DNA of 20,000 bases from an uncultured virus (IMG/VR IMGVR_UViG_3300032242_002374) (IMGVR_UViG_3300032242_002374), one strand, 5' to 3'; shown: positions 3,100 through 19,925, counted from the first letter of the stretch. The notes: generated from the sequence alone by a model not told the origin. Translations and numbers: made by a program.

Positions 3100-3111
3100 T
3101 GTTTATTTTTG

Positions 3112-3182
3112 AAGCAATATTTGGGGTCGAACCAAAACAAGCAGTACCAAAAACTGCGGTGCTACCATTACACCATATTGCC
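3112..3182 (-). tRNA. tRNA-Gln (anticodon UUG), CCA not encoded
   Basis: Minus strand folds as GGCAATA TG GTGT-AATGGTA-GCAC C GCAGT-TT TTG GT-ACTGC TTGT TTTGG-TTCGACC-CCAAA TATTGCT T, a full cloverleaf. Confidence 0.93.
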
Positions 3183-3548: not shown

Positions 3549-4331
3549 TTATCTTGGATGAATTATTTCTTTTGTTTCTATTTGTTTTTTAAATATTGAT
3601 TTTAAAAATACTTGTATGTATTTTAAGTTTGTTTTACCAAATCCTTGTTTCTTAAATCTTCTAGCGGAGGTTTTAATTGTTAAATTAGTATCAAAGTATA
3701 TTTTACCATATTTAATTAAATTGAGAGCCATATCGGTATCATCTCCATAAAATGTTAAGTCTTCATTCAAAGGGAATAGATATTCCTTTAAAACAAATAC
3801 ATTCCCCCCTAATATAATACCCCCTATTTTAAAAAATTGCAAAGTGTATGAAATATACTTATATAAGAATTGCTGTATAAATAAGGAAACATTTCTTCTA
3901 ATAAAATTAGTATCATCATAAAAATTCATAGCTCCAGTAACAGCAACAGCATTTTCTTTTTTTAAAGAACTGAATCCATTTCTTATCCAATTATAATTTA
4001 CTATACAATCTGCATCTAAAAAAGCTATTATATCCCCAGAAGATATTTTCCTTCCACATTCTCTCGCAGCAGATGTACCTTGTTTTTTTTCAGTTACTAA
4101 TTTAAAGTCTATATTTCTTACTTTGCAATAGTAAATATCTGATAGTGGATTATAATAGAATTTTGATTGATTTGTAAAAAAAGAAATTAATCTTAATTTA
4201 GTATTATCTGTTGAATAGTTATCTACTATAATAACTTCATAGTTATCGTAGCTTTGGCAAGAAAGAGAAGAAATTGCTTTAAAAATATACTTCTGTTCGT
4301 TATACGCTGGTATTATTACTGATACTTTCAT
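3549..4331 (-). CDS. Family 2 glycosyltransferase
   Basis: KVSVIIPAYNE, EVIIVDNYSTDNT, G.SAAR..G...S.GDIIAFLDAD, GDDTD and TSARRF motifs. Confidence 0.95.
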   Translation of the reverse strand: MKVSVIIPAYNEQKYIFKAISSLSCQSYDNYEVIIVDNYSTDNTKLRLISFFTNQSKFYYNPLSDIYYCKVRNIDFKLVTEKKQGTSAARECGRKISSGDIIAFLDADCIVNYNWIRNGFSSLKKENAVAVTGAMNFYDDTNFIRRNVSLFIQQFLYKYISYTLQFFKIGGIILGGNVFVLKEYLFPLNEDLTFYGDDTDMALNLIKYGKIYFDTNLTIKTSARRFKKQGFGKTNLKYIQVFLKSIFKKQIETKEIIHPR

Positions 4332-4662
4332 TATTAAGTCTAGTTTTGCCAGAAGGTAATACCATTATAATATTATCTTCTTTGTTATTTAATGTGTTAT
4401 TGTCTCTGTGATTAACAACTAAGCTACTATTTAAAAAATCATCCCCATATTTTTGATATGCAGCTAATTGGTGTACATATATTTCCACCCTTTTGCTTTC
4501 GTATCTGATGCCAAAAGAATAGTAAGCTAATTTGTCGGTTTTTTTCTTATAGTGCAAAAATAGTTTTCTAGGAGTATTTTTTTCTCTATAATAGACATTG
4601 CCATCTTTTACCCTATACCCATTTTCATAAGCAAATATAATCGCCTTTTTCTTCTCTGTCAT
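4300..4662 (-). CDS. HNH-endonuclease-like protein, probably degenerate
   Basis: VHQLAAYQKYG...VVNHRDNNTLNNKEDNI; the final metal-ligand Asn/His is not evident. Confidence 0.7.
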   Translation of the reverse strand: MTEKKKAIIFAYENGYRVKDGNVYYREKNTPRKLFLHYKKKTDKLAYYSFGIRYESKRVEIYVHQLAAYQKYGDDFLNSSLVVNHRDNNTLNNKEDNIIMVLPSGKTRLNNESISNNTSV

Positions 4663-7246: not shown

Positions 7247-7386
7247 AGAGTTGATGCAATAGGATTTGAACCTATAAGATTAGACCATTTCGTGTTTAAC
7301 CGCTAATCCCCACGTTTCAGCCATTCTATACACTTCTTTTAGCTTACTATGCAGTATGTTTACCAGTTTCATCATACACCAACTCT
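7247..7386 (-). ncRNA. tRNA-like RNA with canonical acceptor, D and T arms but an about 80 nt central insert
   Basis: Acceptor TGGTGTA/TGCATCA (extends to AGAGTTGGTGTA/TGCATCAACTCT), D arm ATG-AAACTGGTAAA-CAT, T arm ATAGG-TTCAAAT-CCTAT; no standard anticodon arm. Confidence 0.75.
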
Positions 7387-12757: not shown

Positions 12758-13096
12758 TTATGATTCCTTTAAACTTAATCCCATTGATGTAAGCGTTTGT
12801 TCAATTTCCCTTAAAGATAAAATCCCCATCCATCTAATATTTAAAATATCTTTTTTGGTACAATTAACCAAATCAGATACTAAATCTATTTTAACAGAAC
12901 GTAAACAATTAGATGTACGAACTGTAAAGTCGAGTTCTTCTATTGATGTATTAAATATTTCATCTTTATCTTTATTTTCATTTAATTTTTTGATAGCAGT
13001 ATTTGTCATAAAGTTCAATATGTCATCAGGTATAGTATTTTTATTATCCATTTTTCTTATTTTACCATAAACATCCCAAATGTCTTTTTTTGTCAT
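12758..13096 (-). CDS. Stand-alone RNA polymerase alpha subunit C-terminal domain protein
   Basis: SIEELDFTVRTSNCLRSVKIDLVSDLV...DILNIRWMGILSLREIEQTLTSMGLSL matches the alpha-CTD consensus; no alpha-NTD. Confidence 0.9.
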   Translation of the reverse strand: MTKKDIWDVYGKIRKMDNKNTIPDDILNFMTNTAIKKLNENKDKDEIFNTSIEELDFTVRTSNCLRSVKIDLVSDLVNCTKKDILNIRWMGILSLREIEQTLTSMGLSLKES

Positions 13097-13491
13097 TTTA
13101 CTAATTTTTTAGTAGTTAATAATATCAATGCTATTAAAGCACTAGAAACAAATATTCCTTTTATATATGGTGCATACTTATCAGCAAACAATTCCTTTTC
13201 TGCATCTTCATAAGAAAATATGTCTTTGCCATTTTCTTTATTTACTGAATTATGTATATCAACAGTCCACCTAAATAAAGACTTCTTATTTTCGAGTGCA
13301 GGTGGATGTTGTTTAAACTTCTTTTCATAGTTGTACGCACAATTAGGGCAAGGCAGTACATCTTTCAACGATTCAAAGAATTTGTAATAATCAATTTTAT
13401 CTTGTTCGGTTGGGGCTTCTGGATATGACAACGCAACAAAGTGTATAAATCGCCAAGCCTCCTTACCCCATATCAAAGGACTATACCCCAT
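13093..13491 (-). CDS. Erv1/Alr family FAD-dependent sulfhydryl oxidase with C-terminal transmembrane helix
   Basis: P.IWG...W.FIH..A.SYP..P, LPCPNC (CxxC), W...IHNSVN...GK, followed by a hydrophobic tail. Confidence 0.92.
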   Translation of the reverse strand: MGYSPLIWGKEAWRFIHFVALSYPEAPTEQDKIDYYKFFESLKDVLPCPNCAYNYEKKFKQHPPALENKKSLFRWTVDIHNSVNKENGKDIFSYEDAEKELFADKYAPYIKGIFVSSALIALILLTTKKLVK

Positions 13492-13809: not shown

Positions 13810-14037
13810 TTAATCTCTTTTTATTTCTGACAATTCCATATCTGACAACCAACGAAACAAAAATTCTCTTGACCATTTTATTGGAGCATAAAAAACGGCT
13901 GATAGATTATCATAACTTTTGTAATCAACAGTTACTTCCCATTTTTCTTTACCTTGAATAAAATCTTGATATACACAATCATAGGTTGCCATATTTGTTT
14001 CAAACTTGAAACTTGGTTGTTGATGTTTATTTGTCAT
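13810..14037 (-). CDS. Hypothetical protein
   Basis: ORF track; ATG 14037 preferred as start. Confidence 0.65.
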   Translation of the reverse strand: MTNKHQQPSFKFETNMATYDCVYQDFIQGKEKWEVTVDYKSYDNLSAVFYAPIKWSREFLFRWLSDMELSEIKRD

Positions 14038-14569
14038 TTGATTTTGAATTTTCAATAGAATTATTTATTATAAAAGAAATAGTACCTTTACTTTTAATTC
14101 CAGTTTCTGTCATTATCTGTTTATAAGATAAACCTTCCTTGTGCATATTTATTATTTTTTCGTGGTCGTGTTTCTTTGGGGATGCTTTTGTAGCAGCAGC
14201 TATACGAACCTCTTCTTTTTTTGACATTTGAGCCTCTGAAAGTGTTCCTATGCAGATATTGTCTTCACTAAAATTTTTCAAATCTCCGTCTTTGTGATAA
14301 ACAAACTTATCATTTTCAAATATTTCGTTTCCAAATTTTTTGTAGCCAACAAACCTAGCAACATTTACTTTACCATTTTGCCACTTACCATTTTTAACAC
14401 CTGTCCTTACAGAGAACGATAAACGCCCATTATCTTCTTGTTGTATTGCTCTTGGCTTACCACTAAAGGGTGATATTACTTCTCCGTTAATAACTTTATA
14501 GCCCTTTTCGTGTGCTATAATAATAGAATTGTTTCTTGATGAAAATTCTTTTTTCATATTATAATTCAA
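14027..14569 (-). CDS. HNH-endonuclease-like protein with C-terminal HTH, probably degenerate
   Basis: VARFVGYKKFG...VYHKDGDLKNFSEDNICIGT..EA; C-terminal GLSYKQIM...GI.SKGTISFII HTH. Confidence 0.75.
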   Translation of the reverse strand: MNYNMKKEFSSRNNSIIIAHEKGYKVINGEVISPFSGKPRAIQQEDNGRLSFSVRTGVKNGKWQNGKVNVARFVGYKKFGNEIFENDKFVYHKDGDLKNFSEDNICIGTLSEAQMSKKEEVRIAAATKASPKKHDHEKIINMHKEGLSYKQIMTETGIKSKGTISFIINNSIENSKSNDK

Positions 14570-14900
14570 TTTTTAGTTCTTCATTCATTCTAAAATAAAA
14601 TATGTTTTGTAGATGATGCAAACCAGTAACTTCAATTTGACTTACATACTCTATCCAAATATCATTGATGTAATTTACTTGCAACCCTCTTAAATTAAAA
14701 CTTGGAAAACATTTGAAATTTAGTTTTTGTAAGCCACCAAACTTCAATAGCAATTCTTCTGATAGTGGTATATAATTATAAATACCCCTATGATGATAAA
14801 TAGCTTCTAACACTTGAAATGTTACTTCTACCATTCTATTATGTTCGTTATAAACATAATTACCAATCCTTAAATCTTTATAATTTACCATATTTCTCAT
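14559..14900 (-). CDS. Phage hypothetical protein
   Basis: DLRIGNYV...IPLSEELLLKFG...LHHLQNIFY...EEL, a recurrent Bacteroidota-phage pattern; start moved to ATG 14900. Confidence 0.8.
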   Translation of the reverse strand: MRNMVNYKDLRIGNYVYNEHNRMVEVTFQVLEAIYHHRGIYNYIPLSEELLLKFGGLQKLNFKCFPSFNLRGLQVNYINDIWIEYVSQIEVTGLHHLQNIFYFRMNEELKIEL

Positions 14901-15264
14901 TGTAGTATTTTTCTGCTGCGATAGTTGCATCTTCAATAGTGATATAATTTTCGCCAATTAGATAGGCAAATACAAAAGCATCAATTATATTTTTCTTTTG
15001 AAGAGCCATAGGCTCACCTTTACTATCAAAAGTTTCTTCAAACCATTCGTCAACATCACATAAGGCTATAATTTCTACACCTCTTTTATCCATAGCCTCT
15101 ACTCCAGCATCGTATGATTTATAGATACATTGTTTTTCGTATGGCAATAATGATTCAGCATCTTTTATAATTTCGCTTATTACGTTTCTTACAGTATCAT
15201 CTTCATTATTTGCATAATTACTATACTGTGAAATTAATTTTTGTATTTGTAAAGGTGTTTGCAT
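14878..15264 (-). CDS. Phage hypothetical protein with internally repeated module
   Basis: EKQCI..SYDAG...EWFEETF followed by QKKNIIDAF...EKYYNEKY. Confidence 0.7.
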   Translation of the reverse strand: MQTPLQIQKLISQYSNYANNEDDTVRNVISEIIKDAESLLPYEKQCIYKSYDAGVEAMDKRGVEIIALCDVDEWFEETFDSKGEPMALQKKNIIDAFVFAYLIGENYITIEDATIAAEKYYNEKYGKL

Positions 15265-15653
15265 TAGTTTAAATATTTAAAAGTAAAGTCTTTGTGTTTT
15301 CTATTACCATTTGCACAATGGCAAATATGAGAACGACTTATTTGTAAATAGATTGATGCTTCTCCCAAAGAATCGTATATTTCGGTATTGCCATAAGTAT
15401 CAGTAACTAGAACTTTTTTTTCAAGCCCCCTTTTAGCAATAGGCTTCGCAATTTTTTGCAATATTTCATTAGCATAGTCTGTATCTTCATAAGCAAATGA
15501 AACGCCTTTAACTTGTCTATAAGTACCTTTCAAAACTTTGAATATGCTTGTGACATCTTTTATATTCAAATGAATAGAAGCATCTGTTAGGCTTTCATAA
15601 GAAAACCATTTTTTAGTCTTAATTACATAAGCTACAATAGGTCTCTTAGTCAT
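15264..15653 (-). CDS. Double NUMOD1-type DNA-binding protein lacking a nuclease domain
   Basis: Two repeats: YESLTDASIHLNI...I.KVLKG....VKGVSFAY and YDSLGEASIYLQI...ICHCANG......FTFKY. Confidence 0.75.
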   Translation of the reverse strand: MTKRPIVAYVIKTKKWFSYESLTDASIHLNIKDVTSIFKVLKGTYRQVKGVSFAYEDTDYANEILQKIAKPIAKRGLEKKVLVTDTYGNTEIYDSLGEASIYLQISRSHICHCANGNRKHKDFTFKYLN

Positions 15654-16063
15654 TAGCTTAGTTTAATACATTCACCCAATTCAATATATACATAATTAAT
15701 CAAAAAAGTACCATCTGGGTGGAATGTAACATCGTTCTCTATTTTCCAATCTGTGTTGGTACTATCAATAGATATAGAACCACTAATAGTATTGTTAGAA
15801 TATTCTTTACCCCCAGACTTAATTAAGGCTTCTTTATCCGAATCTGTCAATTCCTCGCAATCAACTTCCCAATCTATATTGCTAGTTATCTTTTTTATAA
15901 AACAATCAATAGACTTTATTCCCCATTCTTTTAGATTAAGATTCAATTCGTATTCTATTGTTACGCTTGTTTTGTCAACATAAATATCAATAAAATTGCT
16001 AACGTTTAAGAACTTATTTATTCTGTAAACTTCTGCATCATCAACTGTTATTTTAAAATTCAT
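15653..16063 (-). CDS. Hypothetical protein
   Basis: ORF track; first gene after a promoter motif. Confidence 0.75.
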   Translation of the reverse strand: MNFKITVDDAEVYRINKFLNVSNFIDIYVDKTSVTIEYELNLNLKEWGIKSIDCFIKKITSNIDWEVDCEELTDSDKEALIKSGGKEYSNNTISGSISIDSTNTDWKIENDVTFHPDGTFLINYVYIELGECIKLS

Positions 16064-16081
16064 ATTTATTTATTTGTTGCA

Positions 16082-16112
16082 CAAAAATACAATGCTTTTT
16101 AATACAAACAAA
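16082..16112 (-). promoter_or_regulatory. Bacteroidota housekeeping-sigma promoter
   Basis: TTTG-N19-TATTTTTG, intergenic. Confidence 0.75.
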
Positions 16113-16220
16113 ATTTATTTTTTAAAATGGTATAAAATTATTTAGCTTTTCCCACATCCATATTAAAAGTGTTGATTTTATTGATAATCCAGAAGATGTT
16201 CCACATATATACGTTAGCTG

Positions 16221-16499
16221 CTATACTACTTGCCTAAAATTTTTAAATAAATTTTTTGGTCTTTTTTGAATTTCTACTCCTTTACTTCCATTATCCCAAT
16301 AGAAATAAACATATTGGTTAGTTCTTTTATTTATCTGAACATCCCAATCAATATATGGTTCAAGCGATGTATCAACAGCATCAAATGAGATAGTAGCTAA
16401 AGTTATTTTATGATTTTTTACAATCTTAGATGATTGTAAATTATTGTATGGTGGTTTATTTCTACCATCATAATATTTTTCAACATTAATTATTTCCAT
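16221..16499 (-). CDS. Cassette gene 1, hypothetical (92 aa)
   Basis: ORF track; the TAG stop lies inside the flanking inverted repeat 16213-16226. Confidence 0.75.
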   Translation of the reverse strand: MEIINVEKYYDGRNKPPYNNLQSSKIVKNHKITLATISFDAVDTSLEPYIDWDVQINKRTNQYVYFYWDNGSKGVEIQKRPKNLFKNFRQVV

Positions 16500-16540
16500 A
16501 ATTTTTATTTTGACAATTACTAATTTATTTACCGTACAGC

Positions 16541-16680
16541 AGCCAACATTAGGTTTGGCGTTATGGTGGGGCTTGATGAATCCGCTATCATCTGTAAATC
16601 ATTATTCATCATTTGTACATTTTGCTATTCGGCAGTTGGAAGTCTATTTCCCCAACTGCTTCAATACTTTTTCGTTGCAC
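16541..16680. repeat. attC-like site A
   Basis: AGCCAAC attagGTTTGGCGTTATGGTGGGG ... CCCAACTGCTTCAATACtttttc GTTGCAC. Confidence 0.7.
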
Positions 16681-16699
16681 GTTACTTTAGGACACAACG

Positions 16700-16882
16700 C
16701 TAATTCATACATAGCCAAAAGAATTTTACTGTTATATCGAATTCCATTTTGCAATAAATATGTGTTTGATGTAGCATTCTAAATGGTATTTGTTTGGCTG
16801 CTGATATATCTAACCAATTTTGACTTTTATAATCAAGCATTGGTTTTTTTTCTTTTTTTACTTTTATTTTTTTCTGTTTCAT
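16700..16882 (-). CDS. Cassette gene 2, basic hypothetical protein (60 aa)
   Basis: MKQKKIKVKK...WLCMN from ATG 16882 with an A-rich leader; the longer track ORF merely reads through site B. Confidence 0.6.
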   Translation of the reverse strand: MKQKKIKVKKEKKPMLDYKSQNWLDISAAKQIPFRMLHQTHIYCKMEFDITVKFFWLCMN

Positions 16883-16924
16883 TTTTTTTATTTTGTGTCC
16901 TCGTCCTGTTGGACGAAAAGCAAC

Positions 16925-17055
16925 GTGCAACATATGGTTTGCAGCAATAAAAGCTGACGAACAAAGCCAAGCTATAAACCATATTCCCGACATCAGGAAA
17001 ATGGTCGGCTGCATCAAGTCAATTCTTTTACTGCTTCAAGCCTTTTCGATTGGGC
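16925..17055. repeat. attC-like site B
   Basis: GTGCAAC atatGGTTTGCAGCAATAAAAG ... CTTTTACTGCTTCAAGCCttttcg ATTGGGC; the arms are complementary. Confidence 0.75.
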
Positions 17056-17072
17056 GAAAAATTGCACCTTAA

Positions 17073-17300
17073 TTATGGGAATAGATTTTTTGTTTTTGGA
17101 CGACCACTAATTAAATGAATGTGTTGAAATGCTACTTCTGAAATACGCTTTTGCATTAATTCATTCACTTCTGTTAAATACGGCTCTAAATCTGAACATT
17201 GTTCAAAGTCTTTTTTTTCAACTGCATCTTTTACCATTAATGATAAATACTGAAAAAAAGACATCAGTTCTGGCGTTGATAATTCTCGTAAAAGTTTCAT
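17073..17300 (-). CDS. Cassette gene 3, helical hypothetical protein (75 aa)
   Basis: ORF track; includes AVEKKDFEQC, a weak UVR-like coiled motif. Confidence 0.7.
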   Translation of the reverse strand: MKLLRELSTPELMSFFQYLSLMVKDAVEKKDFEQCSDLEPYLTEVNELMQKRISEVAFQHIHLISGRPKTKNLFP

Positions 17301-17360
17301 TTTAATCTGCTAAGGTTACAGTACCCCTTTTTATTGTTTATAAATTAATCTACCGCCTTC

Positions 17361-17496
17361 GCCCAACATCAAGTTTGGCGTTATGGTGGGGCGACTGTAC
17401 TCGCCATCAACCAATTAATTCTATTGAACTTCACTTGTTATTTCAGCAGCAGTTTTTCAAATACCACCACGAAACGCCAAGCCTTTTTCGTTAGCT
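17361..17496. repeat. attC-like site C
   Basis: GCCCAAC atcaaGTTTGGCGTTATGGTGG ... CCACCACGAAACGCCAAGCCtttttc GTTAGCT; TTGGCGTT/AACGCCAA and TGGTGG/CCACCA pair, with bulged bases. Confidence 0.8.
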
Positions 17497-17501
17497 GACA
17501 T

Positions 17502-17732
17502 TTATGACGGCTTCCAATATTCTAAAGAGGTTGTCATAATACCTCTATTGAACTCGTGAGTTATCCATTTATAACTGTGATTATCGCCATCGGTAAACCA
17601 TTGGATTTTTTCAACATTAAAATCGCTGCCAATTGACCTACCAAGTATCTTAACTGTTTGTCTATTGTTTGGGTGGTTGGTACTTGTTAATTTAACAAAA
17701 CCATTTTCTTCCGCAAATTGTTCTATTGTCAT
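17502..17732 (-). CDS. Cassette gene 4, hypothetical (76 aa)
   Basis: ORF track; stop abuts the core site of C. Confidence 0.75.
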   Translation of the reverse strand: MTIEQFAEENGFVKLTSTNHPNNRQTVKILGRSIGSDFNVEKIQWFTDGDNHSYKWITHEFNRGIMTTSLEYWKPS

Positions 17733-17763
17733 TTTTTCGTTATTGCTTTGGACAAAAAACGGC

Positions 17764-17941
17764 AGCTAACAAGTGGTTTGGCAAAAGCAAGGCAGACGGA
17801 ATAAGCCTCAACTTTATATCGCTATTCAACCACATATCCAGCTTGACGTTCTTTGCTCAACATTGTTAATTAATATTTTACTTTTGTTCCCAGCAGACGT
17901 AACGCTAATTCCACACCTGCTTTAAGCCTTTTCGATTAGCG
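17764..17941. repeat. attC-like site D
   Basis: AGCTAAC aagtGGTTTGGCAAAAGCAAGG ... CCTGCTTTAAGCCttttcg ATTAGCG. Confidence 0.7.
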
Positions 17942-17947
17942 GTAATA

Positions 17948-18247
17948 CTACATTCCGTACTTCGATTTGAGTTGTTCTAATTGCTGCAACTCTCTGCGTT
18001 TAATTTCTTCTTGTCTTTGAGTTTCTTCATTAACACGTTTTTGGAACTCTTCATCGGTTTCTTCGCTTTCGATAAATGCTTCTATTGTTACAAAAGCAGA
18101 ACCCCAATTTGCCTCTGCTTCAATGTCAATTTCTTTAACACCAAGTTTTTCTAACTCATCTAAATCTTTTCTTAATTTTTCAATAGTTACACCGTAAGTC
18201 CAATCGAAATCGAATGGCACTTCAAATCTTTTTACTTGCTTTTCCAT
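17948..18247 (-). CDS. Cassette gene 5, acidic hypothetical protein with C-terminal coiled coil (99 aa)
   Basis: ORF track; ETDEEFQKR...ELQQLEQLKSKYG tail; the TAG stop abuts the core-site repeat. Confidence 0.8.
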   Translation of the reverse strand: MEKQVKRFEVPFDFDWTYGVTIEKLRKDLDELEKLGVKEIDIEAEANWGSAFVTIEAFIESEETDEEFQKRVNEETQRQEEIKRRELQQLEQLKSKYGM

Positions 18248-18285
18248 TTTAATATGTTTTTAAATTTGACAACCCCTAATTTATT

Positions 18286-18654
18286 TTACCGTACTACCGC
18301 TAACAACTCATTATGACTATCAAGGAGTTCTTTGTATTTAGCTTCATCTTGTTGTTTTTTCCAATTAATTCCAGCTAAATATGCTTTTTTAACACAATCT
18401 TCTACTTTCATAGGAAAACTTCCTTCCCATTTTTTATTAGCATAATTTTCAAATGCTTCTTCTACTGTTTCTATTTGTGTATTGTTAGGGACTAATTCAA
18501 ATTCACCTACTTTCAAATTTGCTCCATAAGCTCTAATAGAACCATCTTCCTTAACTTCTTCTACTTCTTCTGGTTGAATTATATAATCATCACCAAAAAA
18601 TTCTTTGCCTCTTGGTATTAATACATAGTCACCTTTTTTTATTTGTGTATTCAT
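18286..18654 (-). CDS. Mosaic phage hypothetical protein whose last codons come from the cassette core site
   Basis: ORF track; ends ...HNELLAVVR, encoded by GAGTTGTTAGCGGTAGTACGGTAA. Confidence 0.75.
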   Translation of the reverse strand: MNTQIKKGDYVLIPRGKEFFGDDYIIQPEEVEEVKEDGSIRAYGANLKVGEFELVPNNTQIETVEEAFENYANKKWEGSFPMKVEDCVKKAYLAGINWKKQQDEAKYKELLDSHNELLAVVR

Positions 18655-19852: not shown

Positions 19853-19897
19853 ATTGTTTTTTTTATCTTTTTTCATACCATTTTCATTTCCCTTCTG

Positions 19898-19925
19898 CAA
19901 ACATACGGTTGTTTAATAATACAAA
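19898..19925 (-). promoter_or_regulatory. Probable Bacteroidota housekeeping-sigma promoter
   Basis: -7 element TATGTTTG; TTTG 16 nt upstream (spacing shorter than at the other four promoters). Confidence 0.5.

Follow-up and report, generated by a model that had tools for sequence, protein, structure and literature searches.

Array of small genes and palindromes in the window

The DNA analysed here (the window) is a 20-kb stretch from an uncultured virus (IMG/VR IMGVR_UViG_3300032242_002374), and positions are counted from its first nucleotide. Between 16213 and 18304, it carries five open reading frames (ORFs) of 60-99 amino acids (aa), all on the minus strand, interleaved with four related imperfect palindromes of 131-178 nucleotides (nt), named here sites A to D, that are GC-richer than the surrounding window DNA. 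We consider that this region is likely to represent five gene cassettes and four structure-specific sites of the attC type known from integrons, that is, an integrase-less array resembling a CALIN (cluster of attC sites lacking integron integrases) in a phage-like genome. The five ORFs gave no Pfam family and only one weak PHROG match (cassette 5), and they are ORFans. A previous examination of this DNA, referred to as the sequence-only reading, had listed ten arms with their coordinates and sequences and five genes alternating with four palindromes, all of which we found exactly as written.

Each site has the same layout on the plus strand: an R'' arm ending in AAC, a spacer of 4-5 nt, an L stem, a spacer of 6-7 nt and an R' arm starting with GTT or ATT. 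The L stem is a long imperfect hairpin (GGTTTG.../...CAAGCC). Both motifs found at the ends of the palindromes match exactly at all four of them and only once each elsewhere in the 20 kb (left motif at 19896-19910, right motif at 562-576).

We also searched the window, on both strands and with filters off, with a covariance model (R1) built from 26 bacterial elements only, out of 53 well-paired distinct elements. Exactly four matches had E ≤ 1e-6 (3.5e-18 to 1.8e-7), corresponding to sites A-D, all on the minus strand and all spanning model positions 1-199. An attC-type covariance search had been proposed by the sequence-only reading, and run with our own model it found the four sites; the next best match in the window is a weak one at 15997-16053 (E 0.4). 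The features of the array are the following:

16064..16212, no strand: left edge of the array, AT-rich and non-coding (no ORF, GC 0.22-0.25, no R1 match at E ≤ 0.01); array boundary, possibly the insertion-site side
16213..16226, minus: cassette 1 R' tail (GTT... on the plus strand), pairing at 12/14 positions with 16534-16547, both mismatches being G.T on the minus strand
16221..16499, minus: cassette 1 ORF, 92 aa, no family by ORF and profile searches
16534..16547, minus: cassette 1 R'' arm (...AAC), confirmed by sequence check, pairing at 12/14 positions
16541..16680, minus: attC-like site A, 140 nt, mosaic; R1 34.4 bits, E 1.8e-7, full length
16674..16688, minus: cassette 2 R' tail; 15-nt arms, 93% complementary to 16917-16931, with a single G.T (minus strand, position 11)
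16700..16882, minus: cassette 2 ORF, 60 aa from an internal ATG; a longer TTG-start frame (16700-17017) enters site B
16917..16931, minus: cassette 2 R'' arm, 15 nt, complementary to 16674-16688
16925..17055, minus: attC-like site B, 131 nt; R1 36.5 bits, E 5.5e-8; one long hairpin
17049..17058, minus: cassette 3 R' tail (ATT...), pairing at 9/10 positions with 17358-17367; 7 Watson-Crick and 2 G.T pairs over the 11 free positions
17073..17300, minus: cassette 3 ORF, 75 aa, no family by ORF and profile searches
17358..17367, minus: cassette 3 R'' arm, confirmed by sequence check
17361..17496, minus: attC-like site C, 136 nt; R1 62.2 bits, E 2.6e-14
17490..17503, minus: cassette 4 R' tail, pairing at 12/14 positions with 17757-17770
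17502..17732, minus: cassette 4 ORF, 76 aa, no family by ORF and profile searches
17757..17770, minus: cassette 4 R'' arm, pairing at 12/14 positions
17764..17941, minus: attC-like site D, 178 nt; R1 77.9 bits, E 3.5e-18
17935..17948, minus: cassette 5 R' tail (ATT...), pairing at 12/14 positions with 18291-18304; homologous to a cassette of the huge phage LR756500.1 from 17936
17948..18247, minus: cassette 5 ORF, 99 aa; weak match to phrog_25568; C-terminus homologous to the ORF of the LR756500.1 cassette
18291..18304, minus: cassette 5 R'' arm, a half-site at the right edge of the array, with no hairpin behind it and no R1 match to its right
18286..18654, minus: flanking ORF, 122 aa, with its last codons and stop inside the cassette 5 arm

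At the right edge, the last six codons and the stop of the 122-aa ORF (18286-18304) are encoded by the cassette 5 R arm; therefore, the edge of the array lies inside the 3' end of a gene. No relative of this ORF was confirmed in IMG/VR.

The pairing of the arms is specific for each cassette. By number alone, GTT/AAC pairs complementary at 12 of 14 positions are not in notable excess: the window has 7, and 100 block shuffles gave 3.98 on average and 9 at most. Counting Watson-Crick pairs over the 11 free positions, the arms of the same cassette gave 9, 10, 7, 9 and 10, versus a mean of 3.8 and a maximum of 7 for arms of different cassettes, and the true assignment of arms to cassettes was the best of the 120 permutations (45 versus 39 for the second best). 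As in integrons, in which this is the signature of crossover at G|TT, the start of each cassette is thus complementary to its own inverse core, and the claim of the sequence-only reading that the ends flanking each gene are complementary and differ from gene to gene is borne out. Its other claim, that the outer ends of one palindrome do not match each other, held for the bases beyond the triplets, which are gene-specific, but the AAC and RTT triplets themselves are shared. Whether position 1 of the R' arm is G or A follows the site (A at sites B and D) and not the cassette.

Results also showed a regular use of wobble pairs. Of the ten non-Watson-Crick positions in the five 14-nt arm stems, seven are G.T on the minus strand, the others being a C.T in cassette 4 (position 9) and, in cassette 3, two positions outside its 10-bp stem. 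At stem position 11, each of the five window cassettes has a G.T on the minus strand, and they follow the rule GTT-N7-G-N3 ... N3-T-N7-AAC on the folding strand, with a 14-bp stem. The same holds across the wider family described below: in units located by context alone, the arms are Watson-Crick at nearly all positions except 11, where 61 of the 74 bacterial units and 18 of the 22 phage-set units have a G.T. A strict scan for the arm signature found about 100 in one orientation versus 0 in the other in a count over 131 loci in which overlapping loci are counted twice, while a loose scan for position 11 was swamped by AT-rich false matches.

We then folded the sites as single-stranded DNA, each joined to its own cassette tail, as in a closed circle, or to the tails of other cassettes. 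With its own tail, site B formed one rod of -28.6 kcal/mol on the minus strand, versus -16.9 to -22.2 with other tails, and site C one rod of -29.6 kcal/mol, versus -18.8 to -22.9, so that the own tail brought a gain of 6-12 kcal/mol (7-12 for B and 7-11 for C). Plus-strand folds of both closed sites were less stable. Integron sites typically fold as a single-stranded hairpin in which an unpaired spacer separates the R and L stems, with one strand favoured, and this feature is present here. In 87 distinct elements of the family, whose spacers are 6 and 4 nt and in which G.T is enriched on one strand, the L stem covaries (position 10, for example, is TA in 30, AT in 27 and CG in 16) and has fixed mismatches, a C.A at position 3 (70/87) and a G.T at position 12 (57/87), that favour the same strand as the arms. 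Extrahelical bases, by which the recombinogenic strand is marked, define attC sites; in these elements, a conserved single-base bulge was not seen, and conserved mismatches (L 3, L 12 and R 11) are found instead. As part of the explanation that we consider likely as a whole, the strand selected to fold would be the minus strand of the window, on which the R arms of one cassette pair over at least 14 bp with a G.T at position 11.

A CGTC-NN-GCC motif occurs two to three times inside most elements (sites B-D of the window and the bacterial alignment), with one copy abutting the 3' arm of the L stem, and may be a binding site for an accessory protein.

Related arrays in Bacteroidota and phages

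An 18-mer of site C has more than 135 matching stretches in bacterial contigs taken as one genome per species, where about 17 were expected by chance, and among the matches listed most are from Chitinophagaceae and other Bacteroidota, isolates included. The left half of site A also has counterparts at about 35 bacterial loci, with 87-92% identity. Among 151 evenly sampled Bacteroidota genomes (sample G010-G162), 42 had R1 matches at E ≤ 1e-6, in a scan that scored up to 16 candidates per genome, a number that several genomes reach. The bacterial loci form arrays, of up to about 10 cassettes at some of them, with sites of about 130-200 nt, the median length over the whole family being 188 nt (range 65-262). 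The window array belongs to this Bacteroidota-specific attC-like family, which is integron-like although several strict features of integrons are missing.

We also looked at the genes carried by the bacterial arrays. The cargo of four loci (L234, L250, L246 and L284; 29 ORFs scanned) includes GmrSD, Mrr, methylases, a PLD nuclease, a hydrolase and LRR proteins, and is of the typical integron type. At six loci (L225, L342, L343, L236, L215 and L219), a recombinase gene with Phage_int_SAM_4 and Phage_integrase domains immediately precedes the array and is encoded on its top strand. Parasediminibacterium paludis and Mucilaginibacter arboris are among the species with an array-linked recombinase. 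The best IntI-like proteins of five array-bearing genomes are tyrosine recombinases of 368-399 aa with the two domains just named and 48-49% mutual identity; the solved structures nearest to them are those of VchIntIA and a XerA-like protein. Of the four best-scoring candidates among these recombinases, the one from Fibrella (L340) has no adjoining array.

In phages, megablast found no match to the window, and a weak blastn match led to LR756500.1, a 462-kb uncultured huge phage with a long array at about 399,875-406,250 whose layout is like that of the window. Its homologue of cassette 5 starts exactly at TTAGC and shows compensatory changes in the arms. An ungapped scan for matched ends was uninformative in this genome (24% GC), with 168 matches versus 171-210 in 5 shuffles. 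The sites of the LR756500.1 array (L043, L063-L064) are AT-rich and 18-180 nt long, some of them being only about 20 nt without a hairpin. In three of them, TTATATTTG immediately precedes the GTT core on the coding strand; this motif resembles the Bacteroidetes -7 promoter box. The idea that such a promoter lies inside the window elements was dropped, since the motif was seen in some elements of LR756500.1 only.

Motif scans of IMG/VR gave seven further relatives (G001-G007); a first gapped scan had returned 42 loci with 2 true relatives. Three (G001, G005 and G007) are rated 100% complete, and G001 is a complete temperate phage with portal, terminase, tape-measure, CI-like repressor, Erf and large serine integrase genes (23 of 55 ORFs scanned). 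It has five cassettes and five sites; R1 found 5 sites in G001 and 2 in G002. Tyrosine recombinases (PF00589) were found neither in LR756500.1 nor in any of the seven relatives (0/7), while 14 of 14 control genomes had one. The lack of a tyrosine recombinase nearby fits a CALIN. One relative, G003 (IMGVR_UViG_3300028826_000141; L199-L200), has at least nine near-identical 200-nt sites and no completeness estimate, and may be a bacterial array filed as virus.

The comparison of related phages, suggested by the sequence-only reading, indeed showed that cargo differs between relatives and that the site frames are kept. Between G001 and G002, frames identical at 92% over 51 nt and at 100% over 25 nt surround non-homologous genes. 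The cassette 4 arm and the left 120 nt of site D are 93% identical in phage G005, where the cargo is different. Assembled contigs from run X1, one sequencing run that is the probable source of the window and whose listed pieces leave parts of it uncovered, join window frames to other inserts, one of 1217 nt where the window has 296 nt and one of 375 nt where it has 196 nt. Among the sequencing runs listed, none of RNA contained the window. Contigs of run X1 over 16142-17492 have a similar depth (51-61 versus 57), connect site halves and frames of the window with other inserts, and skip site A and cassette 1; they are either variants of the array or a second array in the same sample.

A proposed integron-like mechanism and its rivals

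The view that the array is CALIN-like with a recombinase encoded elsewhere, already proposed by the sequence-only reading, is supported by its membership in the family, by the recombinase linked to the bacterial arrays and by the absence of a recombinase in the phage relatives. Two sources had been considered for the enzyme, a host IntI or a phage recombinase. As tyrosine recombinases were found neither in the scanned window ORFs nor in the eight related phage records, we infer that a host enzyme acts, of a Xer/IntI-like type, and the phage alternative found no support in those eight records. In the mechanism that we propose, this tyrosine recombinase of the Bacteroidota host, and not one of the phage, would bind the folded single strand; strand exchange would take place between G and TT, cassettes presumably being excised as circles; and the R' tail would move with the next cassette. 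Because the R' tail would travel in this way, each gene would end up flanked by its own complementary arms. The data suggest gene exchange between these phages and their hosts by means of a cassette system resembling integrons.

Several results weigh against this reading. First, no recombinase was found among the 36 of 49 listed window ORFs that were scanned. Moreover, the array-linked bacterial recombinase scores 177-188 bits with TIGR02249, below the cut-off of 265, in two stretches that skip positions 181-239, and no protein of the 5 bacterial genomes reaches the cut-off of TIGR02249, their best IntI-like proteins also scoring below that of NF040815. By its sequence, the enzyme is not a canonical IntI and lacks the IntI-specific insert; the search for an IntI-like enzyme in hosts, advised by the sequence-only reading, thus recovered a Xer/IntI-like tyrosine recombinase heading six Bacteroidota arrays and not a canonical IntI. 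Strict 7-mer attC cores are RYYYAAC and GTTRRRY (PMC9892861). The sites of the window keep only the triplets, with AAC at 4/4 sites, GTT at 2/4 and ATT at 2/4, and none of the four R' boxes (GTTGCAC, ATTGGGC, GTTAGCT and ATTAGCG) fits the strict GTTRRRY. Folding each site was another check advised for this array; B and C are long hairpins favouring the minus strand, but site A is a poor hairpin, holding two local 8-bp hairpins and not one long stem, and for A and D the own tail does not lower the minimum free energy. No circles or excision junctions were seen in the assembled contigs, which are blind to circles and to rare junctions. Finally, three features are not explained by exchange at G|TT alone: G001 and G002 also differ inside the adjoining site, site A is a mosaic whose left 30 nt match site C at 28/30 positions and whose right end is like sites B and D, and cassette 5 ends in a half-site without hairpin and has no site of its own. 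These three features suggest additional homologous recombination, or exchange at both R boxes.

We therefore asked how far homologous recombination could go by itself. In such a case, the elements and frames would be repeated blocks of homology among which genes are swapped with no site-specific enzyme, in the manner of the PeSL elements discussed below. This could account for the mosaic structure of site A, for the short frames of 25-51 nt that are 92-100% identical around non-homologous cargo with different site interiors in G001 and G002, and for the breaks of run X1 contigs inside elements, and G001 encodes an Erf annealing protein. However, homologous exchange has no need for compensatory changes, yet the arms differ from cassette to cassette with pairing kept; nor does it require invariant AAC/GTT, a strand-specific G.T at position 11 or covariation in the L stem, and it leaves the recombinase gene heading six bacterial arrays unexplained. 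As a full explanation it appears unlikely, and homologous recombination probably acts in addition to site-specific exchange and not instead of it.

The orientation of the genes bears on a second alternative, in which the folding strand is the phage mRNA and the stems and hairpins insulate, stabilise or direct the processing of cistrons, with no recombination of DNA. In bacteria, 58 cases were clear and 16 others were not; in 55 of the clear ones, the ORF lies on the strand opposite the wobble strand, as do seven ORFs of G003. In the phages, the ORF is on the wobble strand in all 11 clear cases located by context (window, G001, G002, G006 and G007), and the other four cassettes of the window, assigned by eye, bring it to five of five inverted. 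ORFs that run along the attC top strand, as expected in integrons, are thus found in the bacterial arrays and not in the window. The cargo genes are of the phage type and point in the direction of phage transcription, as the sequence-only reading had it, and every clearly assigned phage ORF on the wobble strand is what punctuation of mRNA would give; 7 of the 10 non-Watson-Crick arm positions would be G.U in RNA, and a scan found no excess of promoter-like (17 versus 17.0) or terminator-like sites (3 versus 1.5). Nevertheless, the element strand that shows the G.T bias does not change although ORFs flip between bacteria and phages, so the conserved fold follows the site and not the transcript. 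This argues for a role at the DNA level, as in integrons, and against a purely RNA-level one. Elements also head arrays beside the recombinase gene, and Rfam, which holds no attC family, gave no match for the elements. An explanation by RNA alone is thus improbable, and a secondary role in RNA is possible in phages.

Selfish palindromes resembling miniature inverted-repeat transposable elements or repetitive extragenic palindromes, inserted between pre-existing phage genes, would be repeated, palindromic, intergenic and GC-richer than their surroundings as observed, but we give them almost no credit, as the gene-specific complementary arms flank genes and not elements, identical frames enclose different genes, the 36 scanned ORFs of the window gave no transposase, bacterial elements form ordered arrays with unrelated cargo, and empty sites with target duplications flanking a single element were not seen.

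Going back to the integron-like reading, we compared the array with known systems. Like integrons, the family has tandem short genes, imperfect palindromes with AAC...GTT cores, an R' tail complementary to the R'' arm of its own cassette, one strand favoured for folding, and bacterial arrays headed by a tyrosine recombinase gene of the Xer/IntI clade with a cargo rich in defence genes. Unlike integrons, the sites are long, the R stem has at least 14 bp and a fixed G.T at position 11 versus a 7-bp box, conserved mismatches take the place of clear extrahelical bases, the recombinase lacks the IntI insert, has an N-terminal extension of about 100 aa and is co-oriented with the cassettes, and the phage ORFs are inverted relative to the site.

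CALINs of phages are already in print, and the window array is not the first case: in the available parts of their report, Qi et al. (2023) describe 17 CALINs in phages and recombination by IntI1 of 5 of the 6 phage attC sites tested, P12002L_attC2 being recombined and attC1 not (PMC9892861). The CALIN of P12002L, a virulent Polaribacter phage infecting Flavobacteriia, is similar to the window in that attC sites separate accessory genes on the minus strand and an integrase is absent. We found matched-end cassettes like those of the window in P12002L (for example 29237-30011 and 39242-39518), and the published attC1 and attC2 oligonucleotides map onto matched-end cassette boundaries. Unlike in the window, its sites are short, AT-rich and not matched by R1 at E ≤ 0.001. 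The parts of PMC9892861 available do not describe 14-bp arms, a wobble at position 11, inverted cargo or a link to Bacteroidota arrays. Apart from the published CALIN, P12002L (L344) has a lone matched-end cassette at 14622-15197 (gp24, complete signature) in the tail-gene module, with its ORF in the canonical bacterial orientation.

We also considered elements with a comparable layout in other phages. PeSLs are reportedly conserved stem-loop intergenic motifs that bracket small variable ORFs in plastic phage regions, for which modular shuffling was proposed; they are said to be promoter-terminator motifs and are thought to act by homologous recombination. Conserved stem-loop intergenic elements around small variable ORFs are common to both systems; unlike in PeSLs, the arms here covary with each cassette, folding at the DNA level is specific to one strand, and bacterial arrays headed by a recombinase have elements of the same family. 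PeSLs are presented, in the sections available, as mobile regulatory cassettes of T4-type phages (PMC2839356, PMC4122927).

Bacteroidota are treated as having few or no integrons in the available portions of three sources, in which recombinases without the IntI domain are discounted (PMC9024848, PMC4889954, bioRxiv 10.1101/2024.07.02.601686). Our literature searches found no description of these Bacteroidota arrays, although one may exist elsewhere, and the attC family and its inverted cargo appear to be undescribed. We propose, with a little less than even confidence, that Bacteroidota and their phages share a large unrecognised integron-like system with a Xer-like enzyme lacking the IntI insert, long sites with stems of at least 14 bp and a fixed G.T, and a separate phage pool of cassettes, placed on the opposite strand and read with phage transcription, whose sites would still be substrates of the host enzyme. 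One family of sites is present in more than a quarter of the sampled Bacteroidota genomes and in several phages, in a group where integrons are regarded as rare or absent. If the arrays are active, they would offer a concrete route for accessory, defence or counter-defence genes between phages and hosts, and would represent a second, independent case of structure-specific recombination of single-stranded cassettes, in which both the enzyme and the site rules differ. The identical frames around unrelated genes also bear on the open question of the origin of cassettes.

Other features of the window

Rfam matches in the window are to tRNAs only, and a tRNA-like nature of the array elements was considered and dropped. 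A tRNA-Gln gene is located at 3111-3182 on the minus strand. A second match, of 131 nt at 7251-7381 (minus), reaches 30.1 bits (threshold 29) without being called by ARAGORN, and may correspond to a tRNA gene carrying an insertion. Four HNH/NUMOD-type endonuclease genes (619-1215, 4300-4662, 14027-14569 and 15264-15653) are interspersed with the small ORFs of the window, which also encodes an Erv1/ALR thiol oxidase (13093-13491) and a protein resembling the C-terminal domain of the RNA polymerase alpha subunit (12758-13096).

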